A stretch of DNA of 26,285 nucleotides from Thermodesulfovibrionales bacterium (GCA_035624555.1 DASPRG010000169.1:1-26285), one strand, 5' to 3'; counted from the first letter of the stretch, positions 3,224 to 22,899 are shown. Numbers and translations: made by a program. The notes: generated by a model from the letters alone, not told the origin.

Positions 3224-4142
3224 CAAGAGCACCTCTGAGCATTTCTTCTATTAAGGCTGAAAAATTAAGACCTGCAAGCATTGCTACTTTAGGGAGAAGG
3301 CTTGTTTCGGTCATGCCTGGAATAGTATTGACCTCAAGTACATAAGGATTACCTTTTCCATCAATTCTTAAATCAACCCTCGTAGCACCTCTACACCCGA
3401 GGGCACGATGGGCAGAGAGAGCAGTTTCCTTAGCCCTCTCATAAGCCCTCCTGTCTATTTCCGGAGGGAGGATATACTCAGTAAGACCTTTCTTATATTT
3501 CGCTTCATAACTGTAGAATTCAAGAGATGGCCTTACCTCAACTCCTCCGAGCGCACTGTTATTGAGTATTCCTATGTGTACTTCTTTACCTTCTATATAT
3601 CTCTCTATGATTACCCTTTCACTCGAAGAAAATGCCTTTTTAACAGCAGACGGGATCTGCTTTTTTTCTTTCACGATACTTACCCCAATGCTTGATCCCT
3701 CTGTCGCTGGCTTGACAACCCAGGGCAACGGAAAATCTACTTTTGATGAGTCCATGCTTTTGGCTCTATGCTCTTTGCCCAGCACGATAAAAGGTGATAC
3801 GGGAATTTTGTGATAGAGGAATATTTTTTTGGATGCCTCTTTATCCATTGCAATGGCAGATGCAAGAACTCCTGATCCTGTGTAAGGGATTCCGAGGACT
3901 TCCAGCATACCTTGCACAGCACCGTTTTCTCCGTGTCCTCCGTGGAGTGCAATAAAGGCTATCTTTACTTTCTTCCTTTTTAGGGCGTTGCAAAGGTCAG
4001 AGCCGGCATCTATTGCAGCAGCATCATACCCTAAGTCTCTGAGTGTGTTATAGATTGCCTTTCCACTCCTCAGAGAAACTTCCCTTTCGGCTGACCTTCC
4101 ACCCATCAAAACACCTATACGTTTATCTGTTAACAACTTCAT
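3198..4142 (-). CDS. ddl: D-alanine--D-alanine ligase
   Basis: [34 protein letters not shown], omega loop FYSYEAKY (Tyr, typical of D-Ala-D-Ala ligases), EVNTIPGMT. Confidence 0.98.
3751..3778. repeat. Heptamer array inside ddl
   Basis: Coding strand GCAAAGA GCATAGA GCCAAAA GCATGGA, encoding [10 protein letters not shown]. Confidence 0.65.
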
Positions 4143-5073
4143 TTCTTCCTACTATCCTTATCTCCGGTTCAAAGACAACTCCAAATCTATCTTTTACCCT
4201 TTGGGCAACATCCTCTATGAGCCTGATAAAATCAGAGGCCTTCGCCTTTCCCTTGTTTATAAAGAAATTTGCATGAATGCTACTTACCTCAACATCACCG
4301 ATTCTCATACTTTTGCACCCTGCCTCATCGATCAATTTCCCTGCAGATAATTTAGGAGGATTTTTGAATACGCAGCCTGCAGATGGTTCTGAGAAAGGCT
4401 GGTTCTCCCATTTTCTCTTTAAGAAATCCTCTATCTTTGCAGAAACATGTTCTTTTTTATCCTTATTGAGCACTATTTCTGCACTGAGAATAAGTTCTGT
4501 TGAAGAAATACTCGACCTTCTGTATCCGAAGTCAATGTCTTCCGTCTTTAAACTCTTGATTCTGCCTTTGTTATCCATTATCGATACTGAGATAATCACA
4601 TCCTTCATTTCATAGCCGAAGGCTCCGGCATTTCCATAGATCGCCCCACCAACAGAGCCTGGTATGCCTGCAAGGCCCTCAATACCTGAATATCCTTTTT
4701 CTCGAGAAAAGTTCACGAGTCTCTGAAGCAGCGCCCCTCCCTCAACATATACATATACATTCGTGTCATTCTCGCGTAAGATCTCGATCTTTTTGAAAAA
4801 CTTGAGAGATATAACAGCGCCCTCTATACCACCGTCCCTCACCAGGATATTTGTTCCGCCACCAAGAGCTAAAAAGGGTATTTTCCTTTTTTTCAAGATA
4901 ACCAAAACATTTTTGAGGGAAGGGAGGTCTCGAGGAACGACAAAGAGATCTGCTGGCCCTCCTATCCTGAGCGATGTATGTTTCATCATGGGTTCCATGA
5001 ATCTCACATCTCCCTCAGAGGTGATTTCTGAAAAAATCTCTTCGAGTTCTTCACCTATACCCTGACTTCTCAC
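4123..5073 (-). CDS. murB: UDP-N-acetylenolpyruvoylglucosamine reductase
   Basis: [59 protein letters not shown] start overlaps the murC TGA. Confidence 0.98.
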
Positions 5074-6482
5074 TCCTTTCTCCTTAGCCTCTGGAGTATC
5101 TCATCGCCTATCTTCCATACATCTCCTGCTCCGAGAGTCAGGAGCATGTCGCCTTTTCGCATATTGGAGATAATATGTTTTATCGCTTCTTCCTTATCTT
5201 TCAAATACAAGGTGTTATTACAACATCTTTTTTTGATTCTCTCGAAAAGGGTTGCCGAGCTTACACCCTCTATAGGTCTTTCTCCTGCAGAATAAACATC
5301 CAGAAGGATAAGAAAATCTGCATCCTTGAAAGAATAGGTAAATTCATCCATCAGGTCTTTTGTCCTTGAATATCTGTGGGGCTGGAAGAGGACAAATAAC
5401 CTTCTCGGTTCTTGCACCCCGACTTTTGACGCCTGGTTATGTATCAGCCCTTCCTTGGCTGCCTTCAGGGTTGCCTTTATCTCAGTAGGGTGGTGCCCAT
5501 AATCGTCAAATATTTTTATCTCCTTTGCCTCACCTTTAAACTCGAACCTCCTCTGTATGCCCTCAAACCTCTTCAGAGCCTCCTTTATCATTGGTATATC
5601 TATCTTGAGTTCTAAGGCAACTCCTATAGCAGCCAGGCTGTTCAAAACATTATGCTCTCCTGAAAGGGGTAGATCGAAATCACCGATGGCTCTTCCTTTA
5701 TAGGTTGCTTCAAAGCTGACGTACATAAAACCCTTTCTGATGTTTTTTGCATAAATTTCTGCTTCACTATGGAATCCATAGGTGATGTATCTTCTGTGAA
5801 GAGAAGGGAGAAGTTCACGCAGATGCTCATTCTCGATAGACACTATTGATACACCATAAAAGGGAATTTTATTCAGGAAAGAGCGGAAGGCCTCTTTCAG
5901 GGAATCCATTGACTGGAAGAAATCCATGTGTTCTCTGTCTATGTTTGTTGCAACAGCTATTGTTGGAGAGAGTTTCAGAAATGAACCATCGCTCTCATCA
6001 GCCTCGGCAACGAGAAATTCTCCCTGACCGAGTCGTGCATTACTGCCTGTTGCTTTTAGTCTTCCACCTATGATTACTGTAGGGTCAAAACCAGCATGGG
6101 CAAGAATAGTGGATATCAAGGATGTTGTTGTCGTTTTTCCGTGAGCCCCTGCAACGAGTATCCCGTATTTTAGTCTTGCAAGCTCTGCAAGCATCTCTGC
6201 GCGAGGTATTACAGGGATAGACTTTCTCTTTGCCTCAATGATCTCCGGATTATTGTCTGAAACTGCCGAGGAGACGACAACAACATGGGCATCATCTATG
6301 TTTTCTGCTTCATGACCGATATAGACCTTTATACCCAAGTCCTTCAACCTTTTCGTTGTTTCTGAATCCCTTACATCAGACCCTGTAACATCGTAGCCGA
6401 GATTATGGAGCACCTCTGCAATACCTGACATGCCGATACCGCCTATCCCAACAAAATGTATTACTTTGTAGCGCTCAAACAC
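5070..6482 (-). CDS. murC: UDP-N-acetylmuramate--L-alanine ligase
   Basis: HFVGIGGIGMSG, GAHGKTTT P-loop, EADESD, NIDREH, DDYGHHPTE, FQPHRYSRT, GAGD. GTG start with AGGAG SD. Confidence 0.99.
   Translation of the reverse strand: MFERYKVIHFVGIGGIGMSGIAEVLHNLGYDVTGSDVRDSETTKRLKDLGIKVYIGHEAENIDDAHVVVVSSAVSDNNPEIIEAKRKSIPVIPRAEMLAELARLKYGILVAGAHGKTTTTSLISTILAHAGFDPTVIIGGRLKATGSNARLGQGEFLVAEADESDGSFLKLSPTIAVATNIDREHMDFFQSMDSLKEAFRSFLNKIPFYGVSIVSIENEHLRELLPSLHRRYITYGFHSEAEIYAKNIRKGFMYVSFEATYKGRAIGDFDLPLSGEHNVLNSLAAIGVALELKIDIPMIKEALKRFEGIQRRFEFKGEAKEIKIFDDYGHHPTEIKATLKAAKEGLIHNQASKVGVQEPRRLFVLFQPHRYSRTKDLMDEFTYSFKDADFLILLDVYSAGERPIEGVSSATLFERIKKRCCNNTLYLKDKEEAIKHIISNMRKGDMLLTLGAGDVWKIGDEILQRLRRKE
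5419..5432. repeat. Eroded heptamer pair inside a murC loop insertion
   Basis: Plus strand CCGACTT TTGACGC. CCGACTT also occurs in the murD array at 9899-9905. Only two units. Confidence 0.35.
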
Positions 6483-6496
6483 GATTAGCTCCTAAA

Positions 6497-6524
6497 TCTG
6501 TGTACTGGATTCTGTATTTTGTAT
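6497..6524. repeat. Heptamer array in the murG-murC spacer
   Basis: TCTGTGT ACTGGAT TCTGTAT TTTGTAT. Confidence 0.6.
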
Positions 6525-6529
6525 GCTTA

Positions 6530-6550
6530 CTCATCACTTATCACCCTTCA
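6530..6550. repeat. Heptamer array spanning the murG stop codon
   Basis: Plus strand CTCATCA CTTATCA CCCTTCA. The murG TGA (6541-6543) is the first three bases of the unit TGATAAG. Confidence 0.65.
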
Positions 6551-7644
6551 TGTTTTTTAAGAAGGTTCATTGCAATATCGACTACCTTAGTACATGCCTC
6601 AGGTCTTCCGAGGGCCCTGCTGTTTTTTTGCATTTCTGCCCTGATTGTCTTATTCTCATAAAGCTCCTGTACGGTATGGGCGAGGGATTTACCACTCAGT
6701 TCACTTTCAGGGATCATCTTCGCTGCGCCCATCTCGAAGAGTTTTCTTGCGTTCAAATCTTGATGGTGTCCGGCTGCATGGGGGTAGGGGATTAAAACAG
6801 CGGGTTTTCCGAGAGCTGTCAGTTCAGCGAGAGTTGTTGCCCCTGCTCTTGAGATTACAATGTCGGAGACAGCGTAGGCTTCACCCATTTGATATATGAA
6901 GGGGGCGATTGTCCCTTTGTAGCCAAGCTTTCTGTAAGCATCCCTGATATATTCATAATCCTTTGTACCTGTCTGATGAAGAAACTGAATCCTGTCTTTT
7001 AAGTCATGCATATAATTGAGGGAGTCTACGACTGCTGTATTAATGCTTCTTGCTCCCAGACTTCCTCCAAAGACAAAGATAGTGAATAAACTTTTTTCAA
7101 GTGAGAAAAGCCTCAGTGCGGATTCTCTGCTGCCCTTGAGTATATGCATCCTGACAGGGTTGCCAGTAAGAAAGGTCTTTTCTTTTGGAAAGAAAGGGAT
7201 GCTCTCCTGATAGTTTATGCAGATAGCCTTTACGAATTTCCCGAGGATCTTATTCGTAAATCCGGGGATACAGTTCTGTTCAAGTATCATAGTTGGAATT
7301 GACATAAGAGCTGCGATAAGAATGATCGCTCCTGATGCATAACCACCGACGCCTATCATGATATCGGGCCTCATATTCTTAATAATTTTGTAAGAATCCA
7401 AAAACGATAGAAACATCTTGGCCATCGCCTTTATCCTTTTTGGAACAGATACTCCTACCATTCCTTCTGCCCTTAAAAACTTTATTGGATATCCTTCCCT
7501 CGGTATGACCCTTGCCTCTATACCATGTTCTGTTCCAACAAATATCACTTCTGTCATCTCATTTCTTCTTCTGAGTTCTTCAGCTATTGCAAGCCCTGGA
7601 AAGAGATGTCCTCCTGTACCTCCTCCCGCAACAATTGCCCTCAT
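6541..7644 (-). CDS. murG: Undecaprenyldiphospho-muramoylpentapeptide beta-N-acetylglucosaminyltransferase
   Basis: AGGGTGGHLFPG, GVGGYAS, EQNCIPG, GNPVR, FGGSLGA, RAGATT. Confidence 0.99.
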   Translation of the reverse strand: MRAIVAGGGTGGHLFPGLAIAEELRRRNEMTEVIFVGTEHGIEARVIPREGYPIKFLRAEGMVGVSVPKRIKAMAKMFLSFLDSYKIIKNMRPDIMIGVGGYASGAIILIAALMSIPTMILEQNCIPGFTNKILGKFVKAICINYQESIPFFPKEKTFLTGNPVRMHILKGSRESALRLFSLEKSLFTIFVFGGSLGARSINTAVVDSLNYMHDLKDRIQFLHQTGTKDYEYIRDAYRKLGYKGTIAPFIYQMGEAYAVSDIVISRAGATTLAELTALGKPAVLIPYPHAAGHHQDLNARKLFEMGAAKMIPESELSGKSLAHTVQELYENKTIRAEMQKNSRALGRPEACTKVVDIAMNLLKKHEG

Positions 7645-7677
7645 AAAACATTCAACTTAAGAATACAAAAGAAAAAT

Positions 7678-8970
7678 TCACAATAAAGGAGTTTCATAAT
7701 TGTCCATTTTGTCTTTTTCATTTTTCATTCCGTAAATAGCCCTTTTAGCTTTTCTTCTTGCAATCAATTTTTGTTTTATATCTTCAATCTCCTCGTTGTC
7801 TTTTCCTCTTGATATATTGAGGAGCATTCCAATAGCAGCCATGTTTACAAGGAGAGATGAACCTCCATAACTGATAAAGGGCAGAGGTAAGCCCTTTGTA
7901 GGAACCATGCCGGTAGCAACAGCGAAGTTGATAAGAGCCTGAAGTGAGACCATCAGGGTGAGTCCAACAGATAGGTAATAGGCGAATCTGTCCTTTGTTT
8001 TATTTGCTATCGATATCCCTCTGATAAAAATGAGCAGAAAAAGGGCAGTTACAACTGAGACGCCTATAAAACCGAACTCTTCACCGATAATAGAAAAGAT
8101 AAAATCTGTATGTGACTCTGGCAGGTAAGACAATTTCTGCATTGAGCCACCGATGCCAACACCGGTGATGCCCCCGCTGCCAAAGGCTATAAAAGACTGC
8201 ACAAGCTGAAAGCCACTGCCCTGAGGATCCTTCCAGGGATCAAGAAAGGATATGACTCTCCTGAGGCGGTAAGGTTCCCTAATGAGTATATACAGTACTG
8301 GGAGGGCGAATACAGAGAGGGAGGAAATGTATCTGAGTCTTGTCCCAGATAGAAAGAGCATTGCGAGCGTAAGAAACGCAAGGCTCATAACAGCTCCGAA
8401 GTCTGGCTGCATAAGCATAACAGCCTGGAATGCGATCATAATAGAAAGGGGCTTTATAAAAGATCCAAAGCTTTCAGTTCTATAGTTAGCTGATGACAGA
8501 TGCTGTGCAAGGAATATGACCATAGAAAGTTTTACGAACTCTGATGGCTGAAAGGTTGAAGGCCAGAGTCTTATCCATCTCCGTGCACCACCTGCAGAGA
8601 CACCAATACCAGGCACGAAAACGAGTATTAAGAGCAGAAAGGAAAAGATCAGAAGAGGGATGGCTATCTTCTTGAGGAAAGAAGGTTTCAGACTGTAGGC
8701 AAGAAACATACACCCAAGTCCTATGAGGATTGTAACGATATGTCTCTTGAAGTAATAAAATTCGCTAACACCCTTTTTTGCAAGGTCTGGTGTGATGACA
8801 GAGGTTGAACTGTATATCATGAGAACGCCAAAGACAACAAGAACAAACGTGGTTAGGAGAAGCAATTTGTCATAGGTAGGGTAAAGTGACGAGGGACTGT
8901 TAACAGATGACAGGTTAAGTTCTGAAAATCGAAGGCTTAATTGCTTCTTACTCATTGCCTTATCCCTCAT
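7678..8970 (-). CDS. ftsW: Peptidoglycan glycosyltransferase FtsW (SEDS family)
   Basis: GARRWI, QPSEFVK, QPDFG, GFQLVQS, LPESHTDFIFSIIGEEFG, PTKGLPLPFISYGGSS. ATG overlaps the murD TGA. Confidence 0.98.
   Translation of the reverse strand: MRDKAMSKKQLSLRFSELNLSSVNSPSSLYPTYDKLLLLTTFVLVVFGVLMIYSSTSVITPDLAKKGVSEFYYFKRHIVTILIGLGCMFLAYSLKPSFLKKIAIPLLIFSFLLLILVFVPGIGVSAGGARRWIRLWPSTFQPSEFVKLSMVIFLAQHLSSANYRTESFGSFIKPLSIMIAFQAVMLMQPDFGAVMSLAFLTLAMLFLSGTRLRYISSLSVFALPVLYILIREPYRLRRVISFLDPWKDPQGSGFQLVQSFIAFGSGGITGVGIGGSMQKLSYLPESHTDFIFSIIGEEFGFIGVSVVTALFLLIFIRGISIANKTKDRFAYYLSVGLTLMVSLQALINFAVATGMVPTKGLPLPFISYGGSSLLVNMAAIGMLLNISRGKDNEEIEDIKQKLIARRKAKRAIYGMKNEKDKMDNYETPLL
7701..7728. repeat. Heptamer array in the ftsW C-terminal tail
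   Basis: Coding strand ATGAAAA ATGAAAA AGACAAA ATGGACA. Confidence 0.55.
8886..8913. repeat. Heptamer array in the ftsW N-terminal extension
   Basis: Coding strand CTGTCAT CTGTTAA CAGTCCC TCGTCAC, containing the 10-bp palindrome CTGTTAACAG. Confidence 0.5.
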
Positions 8971-10439
8971 GTCAGCTCCATAACGACCTTTTTGAATTGT
9001 CTTCCTCTGTCTTCAAAATCCAAAAACATATCAAAACTGGCGCATGCAGGAGAGAGGAGGACAACATCCCCTTTTCCTGCGATACCACGTGATATATGTA
9101 CTGCCTCTTTCAGGTCTTTAGCTATAAACGTCCCAGTAAGGTCTCCGAGAGCCTTTTTTATCTTCTCGCGGGCTTCACCGATAAGAACAAGGGCCTTTAC
9201 CCTCTCTTTTACTAAACTTCTCAGCGGCGAGAAATCTCCTGCCTTGTCTCTGCCTCCTGCAATCAGGATGACAGGCTCTTTAAAGCTCTCGAGGGACTTG
9301 ACTACAGCACCTACATTCGTCCCCTTTGAATCATTAACGTACCTGATGCCATCTATCTCTCTCACAAATTCGAGTCTATGCTCCAGACCAGGAAATTCTC
9401 TCAGGGAATCCTTTATTGCCTCCAAGGGACTTCCTGCAAGGAGAGCCATGGCCGAAGCGGCCATGGCATTCTCCAGGTTATGAACTCCTTTGATTTTTAT
9501 CTCGTCAGCATGTATGAGTGATGAGTGGCGAGTGATAAGTGACAAGTCAGGAAAATTACAGTAGATTCTTCCGTCTTTAAAATAGATACCTTCAACCTCT
9601 TTTTTCCTGCTGAAGTAAAAAATATCTGGTTTTTTACGTTTACCCTTTAACTTTTTTCGTGCAACCTCTACTGTTTTGGGGTCATCAGCATTGAGGAGCA
9701 GGAAATCTCCTCCCCTCTGGTTATCGAATATTCTTGCTTTTGCCTCAGAGTACTCTTCAATTGAATGGTATCTGTCAAGGTGGTCAGGTGTGATATTTAG
9801 AATCACGGCCCCTTTGGGTCTGAAGTCCTTTATTGTTTCGAGTTGAAAGCTTGATACCTCAGCAATAATGTAGTCAATGGTGTTTTGACTGTTGATTACC
9901 GACTTCCCATGGGTTGTAGACTGGCTTTTAGCCATTTTCAGTATCTCATCGGACAGGGCATTCCCTATGTTGCCCCCGAGGATTGTCCTGAAACCACCCT
10001 TTCTGAGGATTGCATTCAGGAGGGTAGTTGTTGTGGATTTGCCATTTGTTCCAGTAACAGCAAGAAACGATATCCGACTGCTGACTGCTGACCTATCAGA
10101 TACGAATCGCAGTGTCTGGTTGCTTGCCATCTGGTAAACAAGTTCAAGCTCCCCTATGACGGGAATACCTTTTTCCCTTGCCTTTAATAAAGGTGGAACA
10201 CTGAGGGGAACTCCAGGGCTGATTACTATCATATCAGCTGACACGAATAAGTCTTCAGGATGACTCCCCAGAGAAAGCCTGACCGAAGATTTGAGTTTTT
10301 CTCTAAAATCCATAAGTTCCTCTTCTGTTTTTCTATCTGTCACCGTCACATCAGCACCGAGTTCGGAAAGCAGATTTGCTGCTCCTATACCGCTTCTGCC
10401 AAGGCCCACAACCGTAATTCTTTTACCCTGTATTTCCAT
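8967..10439 (-). CDS. murD: UDP-N-acetylmuramoyl-L-alanine--D-glutamate ligase
   Basis: GLGRSG, SPGVP, TGTNGKSTTT, EVSSFQLE, NITPDHLDRY, HRLEFV, NDSKGTN, LSPACASFDMF. Confidence 0.99.
   Translation of the reverse strand: MEIQGKRITVVGLGRSGIGAANLLSELGADVTVTDRKTEEELMDFREKLKSSVRLSLGSHPEDLFVSADMIVISPGVPLSVPPLLKAREKGIPVIGELELVYQMASNQTLRFVSDRSAVSSRISFLAVTGTNGKSTTTTLLNAILRKGGFRTILGGNIGNALSDEILKMAKSQSTTHGKSVINSQNTIDYIIAEVSSFQLETIKDFRPKGAVILNITPDHLDRYHSIEEYSEAKARIFDNQRGGDFLLLNADDPKTVEVARKKLKGKRKKPDIFYFSRKKEVEGIYFKDGRIYCNFPDLSLITRHSSLIHADEIKIKGVHNLENAMAASAMALLAGSPLEAIKDSLREFPGLEHRLEFVREIDGIRYVNDSKGTNVGAVVKSLESFKEPVILIAGGRDKAGDFSPLRSLVKERVKALVLIGEAREKIKKALGDLTGTFIAKDLKEAVHISRGIAGKGDVVLLSPACASFDMFLDFEDRGRQFKKVVMELT
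9512..9546. repeat. Heptamer array inside murD
   Basis: Plus strand GTATGAG TGATGAG TGGCGAG TGATAAG TGACAAG, encoding LSLITRHSSLI on the coding strand. Confidence 0.8.
9885..9905. repeat. Heptamer array inside murD (STRR3-like)
   Basis: Plus strand TTGACTG TTGATTA CCGACTT. The coding strand contains CAACAGT (9888-9894). Confidence 0.55.
10074..10094. repeat. Heptamer array inside murD
   Basis: Plus strand CCGACTG CTGACTG CTGACCT, encoding RSAVSSR. Confidence 0.65.
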
Positions 10440-11535
10440 TTGTATTTTTTTCTAGGACTCTGTAATCTTTCCCCTTTTTAGTCTTTGCAAGTGTTTTTGT
10501 CTTACTCCTTTTCTTTGCAATGGAATTTGTTCCACTTTTTTTCTTTGTCAGTTTTGTCTTTGCTTTCAGCTTTGAACTTTTAACCTGAACCTTTGAATTT
10601 TTCTTATAGGTTGCCTTTCTCACATTGTAAACATCGTAATCTGCTTTTGTGAAATAGATAACAGGTTCTTCTTTGTTGACCATAATGTTAAACCCCTTAT
10701 CAATAAGGGTCTCTGTCTCTTTCCAGAGGTTCACCCTGCTCGGGCTCCCGAGAAGGGCAACAATTACTGTATCCTTTTCACGCTCAGCTGCACATACAAA
10801 ACAGTGCCTTGCCGCGCGTGTATATCCTGTTTTTCCTCCTATAAGGTCTTCATCAGACCATAATAGTTTGTTTGTGTTCTTGAGAAATAAGCCGTTTCCC
10901 TTTTCTGTCGAGACCTCTGCCACACGAGTTCCGATTATTTCTTTCAGTTTTGGGTATCTCAAGGCATACCGCATCATGAGCGACAAATCAAAGGCAGTTG
11001 TATACTGGTCTTGGCCAGGGAGGCCATGAGGATTTATGAATTTAGTATCCCTTAGCCCAATAGCTTCTGCCTTTCTGTTCATGAGGTAGACAAAGTTCTC
11101 CTCAGAACCAGCTACAGCTTCTGCGAGAGCAACAGCAGCATCATTTGCAGACTTCAGGAGTGCGGCATAGAGAAGTGTCTCAATGGTTACCTCATCCCCC
11201 TCTTTGAACCCTGCCTTTGAAGGAGAAACCAGAGAGGGATTTTTGCTTATCCTTACAATATCCGAAAGATTTTTCTCTTCTATGGCTACAATTGCTGTCA
11301 TCAGCTTTGTTGTACTTGCCGGAGGAAGCCTGAGATTCGGATTCTTTGCATAAAGGATCCTTTCTGTTGATGCCTCCATCACGACTGCTGCCCGGGAATT
11401 AAAATCATCAGCATGTACGACGGTGGGAAGTGAAAACTGAAAAGTGAAAAGGATAAAGACTAAAATGAAAGATAATTTTTTCTGCTTGACAACTGACGAC
11501 TGAAGACTGACGACTAACGACTGTTTCATGATCAC
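10423..11535 (-). CDS. Serine-type D-alanyl-D-alanine carboxypeptidase/endopeptidase (peptidase S11, low-molecular-weight PBP) with Lys-rich tail
   Basis: SxxK (PASTTK), SxN (KSAN), KTG (GKTGYT), NPHGL, signal-peptide-like N-terminus ending VHA|DD. Start is GTG 11535 or ATG 11529. Confidence 0.93.
   Translation of the reverse strand: MIMKQSLVVSLQSSVVKQKKLSFILVFILFTFQFSLPTVVHADDFNSRAAVVMEASTERILYAKNPNLRLPPASTTKLMTAIVAIEEKNLSDIVRISKNPSLVSPSKAGFKEGDEVTIETLLYAALLKSANDAAVALAEAVAGSEENFVYLMNRKAEAIGLRDTKFINPHGLPGQDQYTTAFDLSLMMRYALRYPKLKEIIGTRVAEVSTEKGNGLFLKNTNKLLWSDEDLIGGKTGYTRAARHCFVCAAEREKDTVIVALLGSPSRVNLWKETETLIDKGFNIMVNKEEPVIYFTKADYDVYNVRKATYKKNSKVQVKSSKLKAKTKLTKKKSGTNSIAKKRSKTKTLAKTKKGKDYRVLEKNTNGNTG
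10563..10597. repeat. Heptamer array in the S11 peptidase C-terminal tail
   Basis: CTTTCAG CTTTGAA CTTTTAA CCTGAAC CTTTGAA. Confidence 0.7.
11430..11457. repeat. Heptamer array in the S11 peptidase signal peptide (hydrophobic part)
   Basis: GTGAAAA CTGAAAA GTGAAAA GGATAAA. Confidence 0.75.
11485..11523. repeat. Heptamer array in the S11 peptidase N-terminus
   Basis: CTTGACA ACTGACG ACTGAAG ACTGACG ACTAACG ACTG, encoding QSLVVSLQSSVVK. Confidence 0.85.
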
Positions 11536-12614: not shown

Positions 12615-12615
12615 T

Positions 12616-13980: not shown

Positions 13981-15581
13981 TGCTCATTCACTCCCTGAAT
14001 TCGCAATTTGTCTTTAATCGCCTCCTCAAGAATTTCTCTATCATTCAATCGATACCGCTTGCCTTTGATTTCTTGGTAATCCTCATGACCCTTGCCTGCA
14101 ATAAGGACGATATCTCTATCACATGCTAAATCTACTGCCTTTCTGATTGCTTCTCTTCTGTCGGGTTCTTTCATGTAGTTTCTTCTTACAGCGCCATCTT
14201 CGATCTCCCTGATGATATCGGATGGTTCTTCTGACCGAGGATTATCAGAAGTCAGAATAACAATGTCACTCAGCTTTGTTGCTACAGCACCCATCTTTGG
14301 TCTCTTACCACGGTCTCTGTCTCCCCCGCATCCAAAGACGGTAATTATACGTGGCACTTTCTTTAGTTCATAGTTAGTGAACTGGTCATTGGTCATTGGA
14401 CATTGGTCATTTGTCACTGGTACCAATGTCTGATGACTATTGACGGATGACTTTTTTATGATATCCCTTGCTGTACATATCAGCCTATCAAGAGCATCAT
14501 CTGTATGGGCATAGTCAATAAGGCAAAGGAAGTTTTGACCAAGGTCAATTTTTTCGAACCTCCCTGTAACACCATCAGTCTTTCTTATGCCTTCAAGGAT
14601 TATCTGCCACGGGACTCCCAGGGAGATTGATACGCCAGCTGCAGACATGATGTTGTATACATTAGGCAGACCTATCAAAGGGGATGCGACATCGTAACTC
14701 CTGCCGCGGAAAGATATCTTAAATCTCAGTCCCTCAGAGGATGGATTCATTTCCCTCGCGACGATATCTGCTGCATCCTCAAGCCCGTATGTCAGTATCC
14801 TGCTCGGTTCTGAGTCTTGTCCGCCTGAGGCAGATCCAAACTCTGAGGCTAACCTCTTCCCATAGGAGTCATCCAGATTTATTACAGAGGTTCCATTCTT
14901 GTCGAGGAGCTCCCTGAATAATCTCTCTTTTGACCGGAAATAACTTTCCATCGTTTTATGAAAATCCAGATGGTCTCTCGTGAGATTGGTGAAAACAGCA
15001 ACCTTGAAAACAGCCTCATCCACCCTGTGCTGTTCAAGGGCATGGGAGGATACCTCTGAAATAACATGGGTGCAACCGGAAGAGAGCATATCTTTTAACA
15101 GACCATGGAACTCTAAAGATTCAGGTGTTGTGAAAGGTGCAGGATAGATCCTGTCTTTTACCATGTAGTGTATCGTGCCAATCAGGCCAACGTCCTTTCC
15201 CCAGGATTCGAGTATGGACTTGAGGATATACGTTGTTGTTGTCTTCCCGTTTGTACCTGTTATACCGATGAGGAAAAGATTTTCTGATGGCATTCCGTAA
15301 AAATTATGTGCAATGCAAGCAAGGGCTTTTCTGCTATCTTTGACGCGGATGTAAGCAATCTTTGCGTCTCTCAAGTCTCTCTCCCCCATTACTGCGATCG
15401 CTCCTTTCTTGATTGCTTCTGTGATAAAATCATGTCCATCATACCTTTCACCCTTTATCGCTACAAACAGATAGCCCTCTTTTACCTTCCGTGAATCATA
15501 AGCCACACCCTTTACATCTCTATCCAGTGACAGAGAGTTGTTTACAAAATCACAGCCTTGAAGAAGTTCTTTCAAGATCAT
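13944..15581 (-). CDS. murE: UDP-N-acetylmuramoyl-L-alanyl-D-glutamate--2,6-diaminopimelate ligase
   Basis: YDSR, TGTNGKTTT, TTPES, EVSSHAL, TNLTRDHLDFH, DYAHT, VFGCGGDRD, DNPR (meso-DAP specificity motif), GKGHEDYQ. Confidence 0.99.
   Translation of the reverse strand: MILKELLQGCDFVNNSLSLDRDVKGVAYDSRKVKEGYLFVAIKGERYDGHDFITEAIKKGAIAVMGERDLRDAKIAYIRVKDSRKALACIAHNFYGMPSENLFLIGITGTNGKTTTTYILKSILESWGKDVGLIGTIHYMVKDRIYPAPFTTPESLEFHGLLKDMLSSGCTHVISEVSSHALEQHRVDEAVFKVAVFTNLTRDHLDFHKTMESYFRSKERLFRELLDKNGTSVINLDDSYGKRLASEFGSASGGQDSEPSRILTYGLEDAADIVAREMNPSSEGLRFKISFRGRSYDVASPLIGLPNVYNIMSAAGVSISLGVPWQIILEGIRKTDGVTGRFEKIDLGQNFLCLIDYAHTDDALDRLICTARDIIKKSSVNSHQTLVPVTNDQCPMTNDQFTNYELKKVPRIITVFGCGGDRDRGKRPKMGAVATKLSDIVILTSDNPRSEEPSDIIREIEDGAVRRNYMKEPDRREAIRKAVDLACDRDIVLIAGKGHEDYQEIKGKRYRLNDREILEEAIKDKLRIQGVNEHCGCSEMRLKGF
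14382..14451. repeat. Ten-unit heptamer array forming an imperfect inverted repeat inside murE (STRR2-like)
   Basis: CTGGTCA TTGGTCA TTGGACA TTGGTCA TTTGTCA CTGGTAC CAATGTC TGATGAC TATTGAC GGATGAC, centred on GGTACC at 14419-14424. Confidence 0.9.
14820..14834. repeat. GC-rich mini-hairpin inside a murE loop
   Basis: The mRNA strand reads UCUGCC-UCA-GGCGGA, a 6-bp stem with one G.U pair, inside the apparent insertion GSASGGQDSE. Confidence 0.35.
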
Positions 15582-17275: not shown

Positions 17276-17295
17276 AGCCTTTCACCTCACCACAA

Positions 17296-17646: not shown

Positions 17647-18518
17647 ATCTTCTCCGCTGCCCTGAGTTTCGCACTCCTTGAAGAAGGATTTGATCTGAGT
17701 TCTTCAGATCCTGGAGGCATAGGTTTTTTTGTCATCACCCTGAGTAATCCCCTTTTTGAACTCTGGGCCATAAAATGTTTTACTATCCTGTCTTCGAGTG
17801 AATGGTAGGAGATGGTGCACAACCTTCCACCCTTTTTCAGAAGCCTTAAAGAAGAATCAAGCCCTCTCCTCAGTTCGTCAAGCTCATTATTCACCTCTAT
17901 CCGTAATGCTTGGAATGTCTTTGTTGCAGGATGAACTCTTCCTCTTCTCCTGTATAATCTTTCTACAATCCCTGAAAGTTCAGAACAGGTATCAATTGGT
18001 TTTATCCTCCTCTTTCTGACTATCGCCTCTGATATCTTTCTCGATAAACGTTCTTCGCCGAATTCTCGGAGTATTTTCTCAAGGTCCTTCTCAGGATATC
18101 TGTTTACGATGTCCCATGCAGATAACTCTTGTTCCCTATCCATTCTCATGTCCAGACGCTTATCAGAGGTGAAACTCAATCCCCTCTCAGGATCTTTCAT
18201 CTGCATCATGGAAACACCGAGGTCGAAAAGAATACCGTCGACTTCTGAGATTCCATCCCTATGGAGCAAATTTTCCATATCTGAAAAATTCCCTTTCTTG
18301 AGAATCAGCCTTTCATTGAACAATTTCTTTCGGGCTACTCTCAAGGCCTCATCGTCCCGATCAATGCCTACAAGCTTACCCTCTGAGCCGATCAGCTTTA
18401 ATATCTCTTCTGCGTGTCCCCCGGGCCCAATCGTTGCATCTATATATATTCCACCCGGTATCGGGTTAAGAACCTTAATTGCCTCTTTTACCATAACCGG
18501 GAGATGAACAATCTCCAC
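17643..18518 (-). CDS. rsmH: 16S rRNA m4C1402 methyltransferase RsmH (MraW)
   Basis: HLPVM, DATIGPGGH, DLGVSMMQ, LDMRMD, HPATKTFQALRIEVN, ISYHSLEDRIVK, NPSSRSAKLR. Start moved to GTG 18518 (GGAG 7 nt upstream). Confidence 0.98.
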   Translation of the reverse strand: MEIVHLPVMVKEAIKVLNPIPGGIYIDATIGPGGHAEEILKLIGSEGKLVGIDRDDEALRVARKKLFNERLILKKGNFSDMENLLHRDGISEVDGILFDLGVSMMQMKDPERGLSFTSDKRLDMRMDREQELSAWDIVNRYPEKDLEKILREFGEERLSRKISEAIVRKRRIKPIDTCSELSGIVERLYRRRGRVHPATKTFQALRIEVNNELDELRRGLDSSLRLLKKGGRLCTISYHSLEDRIVKHFMAQSSKRGLLRVMTKKPMPPGSEELRSNPSSRSAKLRAAEKI

Positions 18519-18539
18519 AGTCAATCTCCATTCTTGTCT

Positions 18540-18992
18540 TTAAATACCGTAGGCTGTTAGTCTCTCTTCGACAGATTTCCTGTCTATCGCTTTTGGATCA
18601 GAAAGTTTATCCCATTCACTTCTGTCCCAGAGCTCAATTCTCTCTATCTGACCCACGATAGCAACATCACTATTTATGTTTGCATCTTCTCTATGCGCTG
18701 ACGGGACGAGGATCCTACCCTGTTTATCCATCTCTACCTCAGCGGCAGAGGCAATAACCCTTCTCATAAAAAATCTGACAGCTTCGTCGGATCTTGGTTT
18801 TTGCCGCACTTGTTCCTGAAGCCTGTTCCACTCTTCGAGAGGGTAGATATAAAGGCAGCGATCAAAGGGAGCATTTGTAATATAAAGTTTTGTGCTATAA
18901 TTACTTGCAATGATTTCTCTGAAAGGAGCGGGAATGATAATTCTTCCTTTTAGGTCTACACTATAGTAGTATTTTCCGGAGAAAGACGGCAA
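18540..18992 (-). CDS. mraZ: Transcriptional regulator MraZ
   Basis: Two SpoVT/AbrB-like repeats with DxxGR motifs (DLKGR, DKQGR) and IELW. The real start is most likely TTG 18992 (GGAGGG 5 nt upstream). The ORF-track extension to 19055 runs through the promoter. Confidence 0.96.
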   Translation of the reverse strand: MPSFSGKYYYSVDLKGRIIIPAPFREIIASNYSTKLYITNAPFDRCLYIYPLEEWNRLQEQVRQKPRSDEAVRFFMRRVIASAAEVEMDKQGRILVPSAHREDANINSDVAIVGQIERIELWDRSEWDKLSDPKAIDRKSVEERLTAYGI

Positions 18993-19000
18993 AATTTCCC

Positions 19001-19025
19001 TCCACTTTCTACCACTTTCCACCAC
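19001..19025 (-). promoter_or_regulatory. MraZ operator: three GTGG boxes with 10-nt period
   Basis: Minus strand GTGGTGGAAA GTGGTAGAAA GTGGA. GTGG cores at 19022-19025, 19012-19015 and 19002-19005 match the known MraZ direct-repeat architecture. Confidence 0.9.
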
Positions 19026-19055
19026 AATATAGTAGAGATAAAAAACGAATGTCAA
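19026..19055 (-). promoter_or_regulatory. Sigma70-type promoter of the dcw operon
   Basis: TTGACA (19050-19055), 18 nt, TATATT (19026-19031). The predicted start site falls within the MraZ boxes. Confidence 0.75.
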
Positions 19056-19307
19056 GTAAAAAATTTCAAATCCTATATACTGTATATCAGATAGAGTTGG
19101 ATAACTATATATTGATAACTTTTTATTCCTTCTTTTCGAATTGCATGAGCATGGTATAGAGACTTTGAGAGATCAGATAGAGAATGGAGATGTTTGCTCT
19201 CTCTCTTTTTAAGAAAGGAAGATTTCACAAATATCCATTTTTCATTGGATACCAGAGTAAACCATAAACTGGCATGAACTTTTCTACAAGGAGATTGAAT
19301 TTTTGGC

Positions 19308-19336
19308 TTGACAAAAGGATTTCTTCTTGATACTGT
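19308..19336 (+). promoter_or_regulatory. Sigma70-type promoter of hup
   Basis: TTGACA (19308-19313), 17 nt, TACTGT (19331-19336), with extended -10 TG at 19328-19329. Confidence 0.8.
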
Positions 19337-19382
19337 TAATCTCAACTTCTTAAAAACTTGTATATGAAAGGGGGGAATAGGG

Positions 19383-19655
19383 ATGACAAAAGCAGAGCTC
19401 ATCGACAAGGTTGCCTCAGGCGCAGGATTAAGTAAGGTAGATGCCTCGAAGGCGCTGGATACCACGTTAAACTCCATAAAGGGAGCCTTAAAGAAAGGAC
19501 AAAAGGTTACCCTCGTTGGATTTGGGACTTTCTTAGTTGTGAAAAGGAAATCCAGGAAAGGCCGTAATCCCAGGACCGGCGATGTTATCACAATACCTGC
19601 TGCGAAGATACCGAAGTTTACATCTGGCAAAGCACTTAAAGACGCAGTACGATAA
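19383..19655 (+). CDS. hup: DNA-binding protein HU
   Basis: 90 aa: MTKAELI, VTLVGFGTF, RKGRNPRTG, IPAAKIPKFTSGKALKDAV. Confidence 0.98.
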   Translation: MTKAELIDKVASGAGLSKVDASKALDTTLNSIKGALKKGQKVTLVGFGTFLVVKRKSRKGRNPRTGDVITIPAAKIPKFTSGKALKDAVR

Positions 19656-19672
19656 ACTTTGTGTAATTTATC

Positions 19673-19686
19673 TTAAGAATTAAGAA
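19673..19686. repeat. Heptamer pair downstream of hup
   Basis: TTAAGAA TTAAGAA; two exact units only. Confidence 0.4.
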
Positions 19687-19688
19687 TA

Positions 19689-19717
19689 AGGAAAGGGGGC
19701 ATAACGCCCCTTTTCTT
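19689..19717 (+). terminator. Intrinsic terminator-like hairpin after hup
   Basis: AGGAAAGGGGGC-ATAAC-GCCCCTTTTCTT: GC core stem followed by a T-rich tract. Confidence 0.75.
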
Positions 19718-19782
19718 GTCTATACCTTTTTGCTAACCGGATCGTGTAAACACACATTAGAATAATGAAGAAAGGAGGGGTT

Positions 19783-20088
19783 ATGCTTGTCGAGCTCAGC
19801 GTTATTCCTATTGGTATTGGCAGCAGTATCGGTGACAAGCTTGCTGAAGTATTAAAGATCATTGATGCAAGTGGGCTTCCTTATAAAATTAATCCCATGG
19901 GCACTGTTATCGAAGGTGAATGGGATGAAATAATGAAGCTTATAAAAAAATGCCATGGGGCTGTCATGAAAACCGGTGAGAGGACACTGACAACGATTAT
20001 CATCGACGACAGGAAGGGAAAGCCAAACAGAATAGAAGAGAAGGTAAGATCGATAGAAAGAAGGATTGGTAAATCTCTTAGGAAATAA
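19783..20088 (+). CDS. MTH1187-family thiamine-binding-like protein
   Basis: MLVELSVIPIG..S...., GLPYKINPMGTVIEGEWDE, RTLTTIIIDDR, KVRSIE. Start moved to ATG 19783 behind AAAGGAGGGG. Confidence 0.9.
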   Translation: MLVELSVIPIGIGSSIGDKLAEVLKIIDASGLPYKINPMGTVIEGEWDEIMKLIKKCHGAVMKTGERTLTTIIIDDRKGKPNRIEEKVRSIERRIGKSLRK

Positions 20089-20098
20089 GGGAAAGAGA

Positions 20099-22720
20099 TT
20101 ATTTCTCTGCAGGCTTTGTTGCGAGAGATCTTACGAGTCTCTCCTCGTCTTCCCGCGACTTGAGATGTCCTCTCAGTCTTTCTTCGAGGAGTTCTCTGAG
20201 AATTCTCGAATAGATAGGCCCAGGTCTAACACCCATATTTTTAAGGTCTTTTCCCGTGAGCGTTGTTTTCACTTTTCGTAACTCTGTCAGATACTGGGAT
20301 ATTACCTTCTGTTTCTGCCTATCCTTGCTAATTGCCATTGATAGCAGAATTGTTTCGAGCTTGAGTTTGCTCAGGAGGTTATATGTTTCCACGGGATCAT
20401 CAAGTGGTAGTCTTTTCAGAACTTCCCTTGCAAGCGGTATACCTTTGATAATCATATCCTTGATCTTTGGAGGTGGTGATAATCTTTCTATGGTGGCCTT
20501 CACCTCTTCATCCTGCAATCCTGACAACATGGCCATGAGATACAAAATTCCCCTGTCGGTCTTTTCTTCAAGGAAAAGCAGATTAAACCATGAGAGGGTC
20601 TCATGCATTGATTTCATGGTTATCTCAAGTTCCTCATTGAATATGAGGTTTTGGTATATAACCTTTGAGAGGCCGAGATCTGAAAGTCTCTTGAGTGTCC
20701 TGCTCGGTTCAGTCTCTTGAAACAGGAGCAGGAGCTCTTCATACAATCTCGGTCCTGAGAGCCTTTCAAAGAGGTTCATCTTTATTGTTGATTTTATAAG
20801 ATTCTCTGTATGTTTACTGATTCGAAACCCGAACCTTTCTGAAAACCTGATTGCCCTGAACACCCTTGTCGGGTCTTCAATAAAACTCAGGTTATGGAGA
20901 ACCCTGACCGATTTTTCTCGTAAATCACGCTGACCACCAAAAAAATCTATCAGTAGCCCGAAGTCCTTTGGATTTAATTTTATTGCTAAGGTGTTGATGG
21001 TAAAGTCTCTTCTGTATAGGTCTTTCTTAATTGATGAAGTCTCGACCTTTGGAAGGGCTGCGGGTGACTCATAGTATTCAGTTCTGGCTGTTGCAATATC
21101 AAGTTTTACTTTATCCGTAATTACCTGGGCGGTATTAAACTTCTGGTGTGTTTTTATCCGTGCGCCTAGTTGTTCACCTAATGCCTTTGCAAAGGGAATC
21201 CCTTCACCCTCAATAACAATATCTATATCAAGATTTTCCTCGCCCCTCAAAAGATCCCTTACTGTCCCTCCAACGAGATAGGCATTAAAACCTGCTTCCT
21301 CCGCAACCTCACCAGAAAGCTTAAGAATGTTATAAATCTCTGAAGGAAACCTGTCCTTCAGTAAAGAAGAAAGGCTTCTCCCCATAGACGATTTCTCTTT
21401 TATCACAGTTTTTTCTATCTTTCTGCGCCTGAGGAACTCCTCATAAAGGGTCCTCAACAAGTCTGTCCTTGTGATTGCACCGATAATTCTGCCATTCTCT
21501 AAAACAGGCATAAACCTCTGGTTTTGTTCTATCATTAAAGTTTCTATCTCTCTAATCGGTGCGTTTGGGCCAACGGTTATAGCATCTATTGTAGTAAAAT
21601 CGATTGACCTGCTTTTTCCAAAACCATGGAAAAGGGCCTTTTCCACGATCTCTCGCGATATGAGGCCAGTATACTTTTCCTCTTTCAAGACTGGCAGGAC
21701 GTTGACACCATAACGAGTCATCATTGCCTCTGCATCTTTGATAGAGGTGCCTCCCTGGATAGTGATAACATGACTCGTCATGATATCAGAGGCAACTTTA
21801 AAGGGCTTTACCGTATTTCGGAGTAACTCTGTTAATCTGTCCTCAAGAACTTCTAGGGATGCTTCTTTAATTGTGGCAGAGGCTGCAGTAGGATGGCCCC
21901 CGCCTCCAAATTCTTTCATCACCTTTGATACATCGAGCTCCGGAACCTTGCTCCTTGCTACCATCAATATCTTTCCTTCCAGGCTCAACAGTAACACCAC
22001 AGCATCGATATCTTCGATATCCATCAGTCTGTGGGCAAAGTAGGCTGCATCTCCAAGGTAGCTTTCACGAGATGCCTTTGCTACCTTTATTCTTATCCCT
22101 CCTATAACCATCTCTTTTGATGACTGTACAAGTTCATTCAGGAGGTCAAGCTCTTCCATACTCAATTCCATTTTTAAAAAGCTTGAGACAATATTAAGGT
22201 TTGCACCCCTTCTCAGAAGATATGAAACAGCAAGTACGTCCCTTTCTGTCGTAGAAGGAAAAAGCAGACACCCTGTCTCTTCATATATGCCTAAGGCGAG
22301 TATCGTGGCCTCCATTGGCGTCAGATGTATTTTTCTGGTTTTCAGTATCTCTGTAAAGATGGTTGCTGTAGCCCCGACATTTTCGATCTTCTCTATATCT
22401 CCCCTTATATCGCCTTTATTGAATGGATGGTGATCATAGATGTGTATCTTTATTCCTTTCTGCGAAAGTAGTTCTGCAAAAGGACCTATCCTGCTCGGTA
22501 TTTTTGTATCCACAATAATGAGCCGTGTAACCTTTGAAAGGTTAATGTCCTTTATCCGCTTTATCTCTACAGGGTGAAAAGCCTCCATGAAATCTCTCAG
22601 TTTTTTTTCCTGAGAACCTGGAAAGACCATCTTTGCTCCAGGATACAGTTTATTGGCAGCTACCATCGAAGCGAGAGAATCAAAATCAGCATTGATGTGA
22701 GAGGTAATTACGTCCATCAT
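20099..22720 (-). CDS. Class II tRNA nucleotidyltransferase (CCA- or A-adding) with N-terminal DHH/DHHA1 and tandem CBS domains
   Basis: HINADFD, YDHHP and GGGGHPTAA (DHH/DHHA1), two CBS repeats, LVGGTVRD..DIDI (motif A), RTEYY flexible loop, RRDFTIN, EDPTRVFRAIRF. Confidence 0.93.
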   Translation of the reverse strand: MMDVITSHINADFDSLASMVAANKLYPGAKMVFPGSQEKKLRDFMEAFHPVEIKRIKDINLSKVTRLIIVDTKIPSRIGPFAELLSQKGIKIHIYDHHPFNKGDIRGDIEKIENVGATATIFTEILKTRKIHLTPMEATILALGIYEETGCLLFPSTTERDVLAVSYLLRRGANLNIVSSFLKMELSMEELDLLNELVQSSKEMVIGGIRIKVAKASRESYLGDAAYFAHRLMDIEDIDAVVLLLSLEGKILMVARSKVPELDVSKVMKEFGGGGHPTAASATIKEASLEVLEDRLTELLRNTVKPFKVASDIMTSHVITIQGGTSIKDAEAMMTRYGVNVLPVLKEEKYTGLISREIVEKALFHGFGKSRSIDFTTIDAITVGPNAPIREIETLMIEQNQRFMPVLENGRIIGAITRTDLLRTLYEEFLRRRKIEKTVIKEKSSMGRSLSSLLKDRFPSEIYNILKLSGEVAEEAGFNAYLVGGTVRDLLRGEENLDIDIVIEGEGIPFAKALGEQLGARIKTHQKFNTAQVITDKVKLDIATARTEYYESPAALPKVETSSIKKDLYRRDFTINTLAIKLNPKDFGLLIDFFGGQRDLREKSVRVLHNLSFIEDPTRVFRAIRFSERFGFRISKHTENLIKSTIKMNLFERLSGPRLYEELLLLFQETEPSRTLKRLSDLGLSKVIYQNLIFNEELEITMKSMHETLSWFNLLFLEEKTDRGILYLMAMLSGLQDEEVKATIERLSPPPKIKDMIIKGIPLAREVLKRLPLDDPVETYNLLSKLKLETILLSMAISKDRQKQKVISQYLTELRKVKTTLTGKDLKNMGVRPGPIYSRILRELLEERLRGHLKSREDEERLVRSLATKPAEK

Positions 22721-22722
22721 CT

Positions 22723-22731
22723 ATTTTAGCA
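22723..22731 (-). promoter_or_regulatory. Extended -10 promoter element directly before the nucleotidyltransferase start
   Basis: Minus strand TG-C-TAAAAT-AG-ATG-ATG; no SD upstream. Confidence 0.55.
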
Positions 22732-22781
22732 GATACCTGATGATGAGTTTTGTCGTGTCTACAAGCTCAAATAATCAAACA

Positions 22782-22812
22782 CCCCGCCTTATTCTTAAGG
22801 GAAGAGGTGGGG
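22782..22812. repeat. Imperfect GC hairpin (REP-like or terminator) between the cyclase and nucleotidyltransferase genes
   Basis: CCCCGCCTT ATTCTTAAGG GAAGAGGTGGGG. The CCCCGCCT and AGGTGGGG arms pair with one G.T. Confidence 0.4.
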
Positions 22813-22869
22813 GAGGTATCCATTTTTTTGCCACTTTGTGAGCCAAATGCTTATAAAGGTTTTTGGTTG

Positions 22870-22897
22870 GGTTATTGTAATTTGGTTATTGGGTATT
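22870..22897. repeat. Heptamer array just after the cyclase stop codon
   Basis: GGTTATT GTAATTT GGTTATT GGGTATT. Confidence 0.7.
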
Positions 22898-22899
22898 AA

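Follow-up and report, generated by a model that had tools for sequence, protein, structure and literature searches.

Tandem arrays of seven-nucleotide units have been known in cyanobacteria since 1990 and were later recognised in Beggiatoa, Xanthomonas and Geobacter, without a mechanism. The cyanobacterial representatives, the short tandemly repeated repetitive (STRR) heptamers of Calothrix and Nostoc, were reportedly described by Mazel et al. in 1990, and their unit sequences include CCCCAGT and CAACAGT. Here, heptanucleotide arrays with a common AGT core are described in a Thermodesulfovibrionales bacterium, starting from a stretch of 26,285 nucleotides that carries a division and cell-wall gene cluster (GCA_035624555.1 DASPRG010000169.1:1-26285; this whole stretch is called the window). 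The window is contig C154 of an assembly of 1.31 Mb in 181 contigs with 41.6% G+C, rated 81% complete. An initial annotation of the window had listed 15 such arrays and proposed that a dedicated process writes them. For comparison, five genomes of the same genus, which align to the window at 81-95% identity, were used; G001, G002, G003 and G005 are among the same-genus genomes compared, and G000 denotes the genome under study.

Several related repeats have been reported. Cyanobacterial STRR heptamers are mentioned in a study of the GGGAATC / GGGGAYT heptamer repeats of Xanthomonas and Nostoc (Rehm et al., 2015, PMC4692102), TAACTGA direct repeats occur in Beggiatoaceae, cyanobacteria and Bacteroidetes (MacGregor, 2015, PMC4679880), and Geobacter metallireducens carries multicopy heptanucleotide elements (Aklujkar et al., 2009, PMC2700814). 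Over-representation of heptamers, their convergent pairing, their patchy distribution and the lack of a mechanism are already found in this literature (PMC4692102, PMC4679880, PMC2700814). Small palindromes that become part of proteins are represented by the Rickettsia palindromic elements (reviewed in PMC10969869).

A seven-nucleotide register with a common AGT core

Comparison with shuffled controls and with other periods, which the initial annotation had proposed as a check, revealed a large excess of period 7 over the whole genome (54-78 loci compared to 0). With triplets permuted within 300-nt blocks (codon-block shuffles) as control, Tandem Repeats Finder (TRF) detected, at a score of at least 40, 54 arrays of period 7 compared to 0.0 in the shuffles, 32 of period 14 compared to 5.4 and 12 of period 8 compared to 0, while the remaining periods were near the controls. 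Exact tandem runs numbered 23 at period 7 compared to 0.3 in Markov shuffles; periods 5, 6, 8 and 9 had 2-4. A lag-match scan for loci with at least 17 of 21 matches gave 78 at period 7 compared to 0, 17 at period 8 compared to 0.3, and 8-11 at periods 6, 9 and 12 compared to about 1. The earlier statement that the period is always seven is therefore correct in that a fixed 7-nt register goes far beyond chance, and too narrow in that an 8-nt class exists as well. These period-8 arrays are a true minority class genome-wide and flank some of the IVP genes discussed below (L118, L125), so that the register is 7 or 8.

In total, 103 arrays are spread over many contigs, and 45% of them are intergenic or at the edge of an open reading frame (ORF), compared to about 12% non-coding DNA. 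Identical array elements were also observed at contig ends (G000 C157 6-73 and C72 6380-6447; C116 24-62 and C24 390-428). The repeats thus break the assembly, and in metagenome-assembled genomes (MAGs) both arrays and array-flanked genes are undercounted.

The units had been regarded as arbitrary in sequence with only the period constant, a view that had to be abandoned, since they share an AGT core. AGT or ACT is present in 57% of TRF consensus units compared to 18% of background heptamers, and series of four AGT spaced by 7 nt were counted at 60 loci compared to 0-2 at spacings of 5, 6, 8, 9 and 10; none of the other trinucleotides tested for phasing came near AGT except A-rich ones. Alignment of 258 units on the core gave AGT followed by T or G (74%), A (65%), any nucleotide and A or G, which corresponds to the consensus AGTKANR. 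An all-against-all comparison places the arrays of the genome in about ten unit-type families of 75-85% identity. In four coding arrays, taken together, core positions show 84% conservation between species compared to 59% at other positions, whichever reading frame the core occupies. Since it falls in all three frames, the constraint acts on the nucleic acid and not on the protein. Selection of a heptad at the protein level was accordingly rejected, as AGT is kept in every frame and most arrays are non-coding.

A canonical element is a convergent pair of the form (AGTN4)n, spacer, (N4ACT)n, with arms of 3-5 units and a spacer of 5-60 nt. When phased arrays were defined by at least three phased AGT cores (n=80 in the genome), neighbours no more than 150 nt apart comprised 16 pairs with the AGT arm followed by the ACT arm and gaps of 6-60 nt, three in the reverse order, all with gaps above 90 nt, and one in the same sense. 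About 40% of the arrays stand in convergent pairs, i.e. as arms resembling terminal inverted repeats, and an inverted partner lies within 100 nt of about 30% of the TRF arrays compared to 1-6% in reversed or complemented controls. Folding of the pairs yields imperfect hairpins (median fold z = -3.9). By a longest-ORF call, about 88% of the genome is coding, and 53 of the 80 phased arrays (66%) are intergenic.

The pattern of four phased AGT is widespread in the phylum. It was detected in 182 of 301 sampled Nitrospirota genomes with up to about 400 occurrences per genome; as its control, the scan used the reversed pattern (TGA at period 7), which is an imperfect null since TGA-phased heptamers exist too. 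All eight genomes of the window's own family carry it, as do 52 of 57 in family f22 and 42 of 57 in f26, compared to 0 of 10 in f20, 2 of 20 in f27 and 0 of 4 in f5.

Arrays inside and beside the genes of the window

The 15 sites listed for the window were scored by their lag-7 matches out of 21. Seven are solid, namely 6497 (15), 9512 (16), 10074 (14-15), 10563 (15), 11430 (17), 11485 (18) and 14382 (19). Five are marginal and individually non-significant (3751, 13; 6530, 13; 7701, 14; 19673, 14; 22870, 13), and three are weak (8886, 12; 9885, 12; 5419, 7, with no periodicity). At 3751, 8886 and 9885, the corresponding series of G001 is more regular than that of the window, and at the last of these sites G003 shows a clean array of four units; these three sites therefore look like decayed arrays. 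The list thus stands for the seven solid sites and for three of the other eight, which are rescued by relatives, but it over-counted, and site 5419 is left without any support. In the lag-match scan, no lag-7 peak of at least 14 was found in ftsZ, ftsA, ftsQ, mraY, murF, ftsI or rsmH, in agreement with the earlier remark that ftsZ, ftsA, mraY, murF, ftsI and rsmH are free of arrays. The supported features are compiled in Table 1.

Table 1. Heptanucleotide arrays and related elements of the window (scores as n/21 are lag-7 matches)
Feature	Position	Strand	Units and remarks
murE palindrome	14383..14451	-	about five TTGGTCA-type units, GGTACC centre, three TGAC-type units; TRF score 57
S11 peptidase, N-terminal array	11485..11523	-	about five ACTGACG units (sense CGTCAGT); 18/21
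S11 peptidase, signal-peptide core array	11428..11464	-	AGTGAAA units (sense TTTCACT); 17/21; present in all five genus genomes
S11 peptidase, C-terminal array	10552..10600	-	degenerate CTTTGAA-type, Lys-rich tail; 15/21; variable tail region; length conserved in genus
MurD loop 1 array	10063..10103	-	CTGACTG, 2.4 units; TRF 100% match, score 34; just before P-loop strand
MurD loop 2 array	9885..9905	-	decayed YTGACTR; 12/21
MurD loop 3 array	9507..9552	-	about four AGTGATG units; 16/21; aligns in five genomes
FtsW N-terminal tail array	8886..8920	-	decayed GTGACGN; 12/21; G001 regular GTGACG-type series
FtsW C-terminal tail array	7699..7734	-	marginal TTTTCAT-type; TRF score 34; 14/21
murG-murC spacer arrays	6496..6552	-	two abutting: TCTGTAT type (15/21), then CTCATCA type (13/21)
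ddl array	3751..3785	-	decayed TCTNTGC at variable loop; 13/21; G001 same length, more regular
Array upstream of hypothetical gene 19073-19630	19671..19701	.	TTAAGAA, 2.1 units; TRF score 30; G001 exactly one unit (7 nt) fewer
Hypervariable spacer	22735..22899	.	marginal GGTTATT array and G/C-rich hairpin

Alignments with up to 18 orthologues per protein place every supported in-gene array in a length-variable protein region: three loops of MurD, both tails of FtsW, the N-terminal extension, the signal-peptide core and the Lys-rich tail of the S11 peptidase, and the MurE linker. In Nitrospira and other outgroups, the loops are short at the array positions. The suggestion that arrays are a source of lineage-specific loop and tail sequence in conserved enzymes is supported by these alignments and extends to a linker and a signal peptide.

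The murE palindrome has arms of 74-83% complementarity and a hairpin energy of -31.8 kcal/mol (z = -6.6). It encodes most of a ~30-residue insert in the linker ahead of the C-terminal domain; the alignment of MurE with solved structures in the PDB is interrupted from residue 375 to residue 411, a stretch for which the solved chain has 5 residues, and the NCBIfam match splits at the same point. At this site G001 is 69 nt shorter between flanks of 95% identity and has no left arm, which is missing from G002 and G005 too, and G003 carries an AGAGTTC-type array and a G/C-rich hairpin in place of the palindrome.

Relatives of the murE palindrome are found elsewhere in the genome, in the N-terminal extension of a UDG-family protein and in an interdomain linker of a CoA-enzyme activase. 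All three copies stand in the same orientation and frame and encode the peptide VNSHQ..TNDQ(C/W)PMTN, and the unit that would place a TGA in frame reads TGT or TGG in each of them. In the murE and UDG copies, the unit variants of the right arm follow the same order, which points to common descent rather than independent slippage. The same palindromic element is thus read in frame in unrelated genes and yields one peptide, as is typical of Rickettsia palindromic elements. The many near-identical copies of a miniature inverted-repeat transposable element (MITE) were not found, copies of one family being 75-85% alike, and the earlier proposal that the arrays are not one conserved mobile sequence is supported.

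The gene of the S11 peptidase contains three arrays. The N-terminal one encodes residues 5-17, ahead of the signal-peptide core, and has the same length in all five genomes; its ACT is kept at 95%, compared to 28% for the other four positions, which switch as a block. In unit type, the window matches the most distant genome, G002, and not the closest, G001. The second array encodes the hydrophobic core of the signal peptide and forms with the first a convergent AGT...ACT pair that does not fold (z = +1.6). All five genomes conserve the start codon and a strong ribosome-binding site ahead of the arrays, which are therefore truly translated. In a contig of run X3, the third peat sample, clustered substitutions at 11008-11023 and 11418-11482 make the AGTGAAA array more regular and similar to that of G001; they may reflect a co-occurring sister population.

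In MurD, loop 1 differs by a 15-nt indel from G003 and G005 and varies in length among all relatives. The site of loop 2 is a hot spot of arrays, with four GACGAGT units in G003 and 8-mer arrays in G005 and G002. The array of loop 3 is old and of conserved length across the genus, with 83% conservation of the AGT core compared to 72% at other positions. The C-terminal tail of FtsW that contains the array lies beyond the end of the FtsW profile and is variable among relatives. The two spacer arrays between murG and murC fill the spacer and provide the stop codon of murG; one additional 7-nt unit in G001 shifts this stop and alters the last residues of MurG.

Turnover between species and stability among strains

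G001 aligns with the whole window continuously at 95% identity, with three breaks, two of which bear elements (the murE palindrome and the 22735-22899 spacer). For 18 arrays, both flanks were found in G001; four intergenic ones differ by exactly 7 nt, and most of those in ORFs are unchanged in length. Whole elements are replaced at C82 5553/5587, at C140 8966 and at window 22735-22899, where the alignment stops exactly at the spacer and G001 holds an unrelated inverted pair of 8-mer arrays. Unit types are shared with G002 and with G003 in a manner discordant with the phylogeny of the flanks.

Arrays thus gain and lose whole 7-nt units, and their units are replaced in concert with the AGT core kept. 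Between species of 93-95% identity, whole elements appear, vanish or swap at hot spots. The copies that persist in genes are confined to tolerant loops, linkers, signal peptides and tails, and they are read in the stop-free frame and orientation.

A different picture was obtained among strains. No indel was found anywhere in 3100-23000, arrays included, among the contigs of four peat metagenome runs (contigs only), and single contigs span the murE element in two of them. As these contigs show no indels, the arrays are not hypermutable switches.

A proposed self-maintaining repeat class and its alternatives

The explanation that we favour, with a probability of about 0.6, is that the arrays are local members of a genome- and phylum-wide class of STRR-like heptanucleotide repeats, which maintain themselves and are largely selfish DNA. 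Hairpin-prone repeats would favour slipped-strand mispairing and templated repair between the arms, and this would renew and homogenise the arrays. The register could be set by a putative activity that recognises AGT once every 7 nt. The extra peptides of MurE, MurD, FtsW and the S11 peptidase would then be tolerated by-products and not the purpose of the repeats. Slippage in a 7-nt register, one of the processes suggested in the initial annotation, agrees with the exact 7-nt differences of the four intergenic arrays and of the murG-end array from a 93-95% identical genome, but slippage alone explains neither the number seven nor the AGT core.

Several points weigh against a self-maintaining class. 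Plain slippage predicts neither a register of 7, sometimes 8, nor a retained AGT. Unit types that are shared against the flank phylogeny could stem from recombination or repeated insertion, not from homogenisation in place. Neither a target-site duplication nor a transposase was identified that would account for the arrival of elements at new loci. Conservation of the core and of some arrays across the genus would also fit a selected function. Moreover, the coding and intergenic counts rest on a crude ORF call, and contigs hide rare variants, so that the stability among strains gives only a lower bound on the rate of change.

A selected function is the most serious of the alternatives, albeit a clearly less probable one. 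The arrays might be cis elements, i.e. hairpins or multimeric sites for a putative reader of one AGT per 7 nt, which act as RNase III sites, stabilisers of transcript ends, terminators or translational operators. Their intergenic enrichment and frequent position next to stop or start codons, their significant folds, the preservation of the AGT core at the nucleotide level in all frames and the persistence of some arrays at the same place across the genus would all be expected of such elements, and a regulatory role has been proposed for TAACTGA of Beggiatoaceae (MacGregor, PMC4679880). However, whole elements are swapped for unrelated ones between species of 95% identity, the units differ widely outside the core, and many copies lie in essential coding sequence, where cleavage or termination would do harm.

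Candidate enzymes were sought in the genomes richest in repeats. A Y1_Tnp gene is present in four of the five genomes of highest load, but a Y1/HUH transposase was rejected as a requirement, since Y1_Tnp was not found in G060 with its about 240 pattern matches. Another family, 23S_rRNA_IVP (Pfam PF05635), comprises small, four-helix-bundle, Avd-like proteins, which we take to belong to the same Pfam family as the Avd accessory proteins of diversity-generating retroelements. Four of the five richest genomes have 5-9 matches to it, of which three to seven are full-length, and the same-genus genomes possess 2-7 IVP genes each. Six IVP genes were inspected in four repeat-rich genomes; arrays of 7- or 8-mers flank all of them, inverted in at least four of the six, and also flank one in G001. 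In the genome sample that was scanned for arrays, across 21 Nitrospirota families with at least three sampled genomes each, the share of genomes with arrays correlates with the share with IVP (Spearman 0.74), although kin are non-independent; families f20, f21, f27 and f5 have no IVP, and arrays in at most 3 of 41 genomes.

One IVP gene could be followed between species. In G001, a cassette of about 600 nt with the order array-IVP gene-array (L125 1295-1954), including 8-mer arrays and a short ORF fragment, sits between a conserved gene and a downstream gene whose product begins MPKRTDIKK and which is presumably carB-like. The cassette is absent from the orthologous 64-nt spacer of the genome under study (G000 C6 6572-6636), where no footprint is seen, and neither the MurE nor the C6 presence/absence junctions show a target-site duplication.

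It is conceivable that the arrays are the ends or the IVP-less derivatives of such a mobile cassette, with solo pairs and in-gene copies resembling MITEs and with the cassette machinery setting the register of AGT and 7 nt. The array-flanked genes, the presence/absence polymorphism of the G001 cassette, the co-distribution among families and the IVP genes of the genus speak for this possibility, which we nevertheless consider doubtful and slightly less probable than a selected function. The richest genome of all, G276, is 100% complete and has about 400 pattern matches but no IVP gene, which rejects the gene as a strict requirement. None of the 16 convergent pairs here encloses a gene, and the empty site bears no footprint. 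Co-distribution among kin is not causation, and cassettes may land in or recruit existing arrays. No PF05635 match was found in the genome under study either, which is weak evidence at 81% completeness with 2-7 copies in the sister genomes; its absence probably reflects a gap in the fragmented assembly. A broader version, equally doubtful, would be that AGT-phased arrays, including STRR and the TAACTGA repeats of other phyla, are working ends and orphaned remnants of a hitherto undescribed, IVP-based mobile cassette that operates without reverse transcriptase or known transposase. If this were true, loops, linkers and signal peptides would arise anew in essential proteins as a side effect of the IVP cassette system.

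Another form of the dedicated process suggested in the initial annotation is a templated repeat-adding polymerase or a reverse transcriptase that writes the heptamers. The fixed register and the presumed kinship of IVP with Avd would suit it. Yet the reverse transcriptase family RVT_1 (PF00078) was not found in this genome, 81% complete, and was also missed in four of the five relatives with the highest repeat load, all of them at least 99% complete; a reverse transcriptase as the writer is not supported, and the arrays need none. A single templating enzyme is a poor fit with dozens of unit variants in one genome, and the arrays are short (3-7 units) and internally heterogeneous, unlike copies of a single template. 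Overall, we regard such a polymerase or reverse transcriptase as very unlikely.

Less is to be said for contingency loci, in which frameshifting changes in copy number toggle genes. Seven is not a multiple of three, and 7-nt changes do occur between species in spacers, but the host genes encode essential housekeeping enzymes, the arrays are short and imperfect, most of those in ORFs are stable in length, and the indels in murE (69 nt) and murD (15 nt) are multiples of three. As the four runs also agree in array length, phase-variable simple sequence repeats were rejected and this explanation is highly improbable. Chance, codon-usage periodicity or assembly artefact, to which several listed sites that are individually no better than chance might point, is refuted for the class as a whole by shuffled controls that give 0 and by the presence of arrays in independent assemblies of four runs and in five sister genomes, and it still holds for site 5419.

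If the arrays are indeed self-maintaining repeats, the comparison of species with 95% identity shows selfish DNA becoming protein sequence of essential enzymes. The selective filter that operates in genes is visible in insert lengths that stay in frame, in the reading of the stop-free frame, in the patching of an in-frame TGA and in one signal peptide that is largely built from repeats.

Gene content and further elements of the window

The minus strand of the window carries a complete division and cell-wall (dcw) cluster in the order, from the low-coordinate end, ftsZ, ftsA, ftsQ, ddl, murB, murC, murG, ftsW, murD, S11 DD-peptidase, mraY, murF, murE, ftsI, rsmH and mraZ, followed by an A-adding tRNA nucleotidyltransferase and a diguanylate cyclase. 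The gene of the S11 DD-carboxypeptidase/endopeptidase (10423-11535) lies within the cluster between mraY and murD, a placement conserved in Thermodesulfovibrionales-like relatives. The ORFs at 19073-19630 (185 aa) and 25116-26285 (>390 aa, open at the window end) have no match in Pfam or NCBIfam. The closest relatives of MurE (52-65% identity) are encoded by MAGs named Nitrospirae, Nitrospirota or Thermodesulfovibrionales, and the genome had rightly been called non-cyanobacterial. A peat metagenome run holds the DNA of the window almost whole.

A second kind of small element was also observed, namely palindromes of a G-run and a C-run (GGGGGAGG...CCCC type). They are located at 1-43, just past the ftsZ stop codon, and at 22783-22818, in the 22735-22899 spacer; in G003 (L083), one is nested beside the heptamer array of the murE insert.

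Comparison with known systems

The Rickettsia palindromic elements resemble the in-gene copies in that palindromes stand in frame in unrelated housekeeping genes and each family adds a conserved peptide compatible with the fold; they differ by a length of about 150 bp, by copies that are much more alike and by the absence of heptamer arrays or a heptamer register (PMC10969869). The elements of Geobacter metallireducens are likewise 3-5 tandem 7-9-mers within and between genes, often paired on opposite strands at variable distance, but have few fixed consensus units (GGACCGG, MTYCTGA) and were read by the authors as sites of global regulators (PMC2700814). The Xanthomonas and Nostoc repeats share the exclusive over-representation of heptamers, form about 70 convergent opposite-strand pairs per genome and do not recur at the same genes in close species; in contrast to the arrays described here, they are G-rich and quadruplex-forming, with one unit per genome and only 7-11% intragenic (PMC4692102). 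The TAACTGA repeats form arrays of 2-6 heptamers, mostly intergenic near start codons with few in ORFs, patchy across phyla and with no established mechanism, but they have one dominant unit, repeats of related heptamers are rare, and inverted pairs are the exception, with one case (PMC4679880).

When reverse-complemented and rotated, TAACTGA becomes AGTTATC and matches the consensus found here. A literature search for heptamer repeats in Nitrospirota found no paper, and a search for the STRR unit strings returned unrelated primer lists only. The AGT-phased arrays are regarded as a variant of STRR-like heptamer repeats.

The STRR heptamers share with them the short tandem 7-nt units at many loci and the several unit types per genome. 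Of the STRR units, TTGGTCA forms arrays at three loci here and CAACAGT is contained in units at C140 7959, whereas most units differ. Unlike STRR, the present arrays reside in a Nitrospirota host, vary in dozens of forms on one consensus, follow convergent pairing as the rule and are translated in many copies in essential genes. Rotated CCCCAGT and CAACAGT also carry the AGT core. The lineage offers three testable handles on this group of repeats: a shared AGT core spaced by 7 nt, with which the classic STRR and TAACTGA units agree, the strict convergent arms and the family-level co-distribution with array-bracketed IVP genes.

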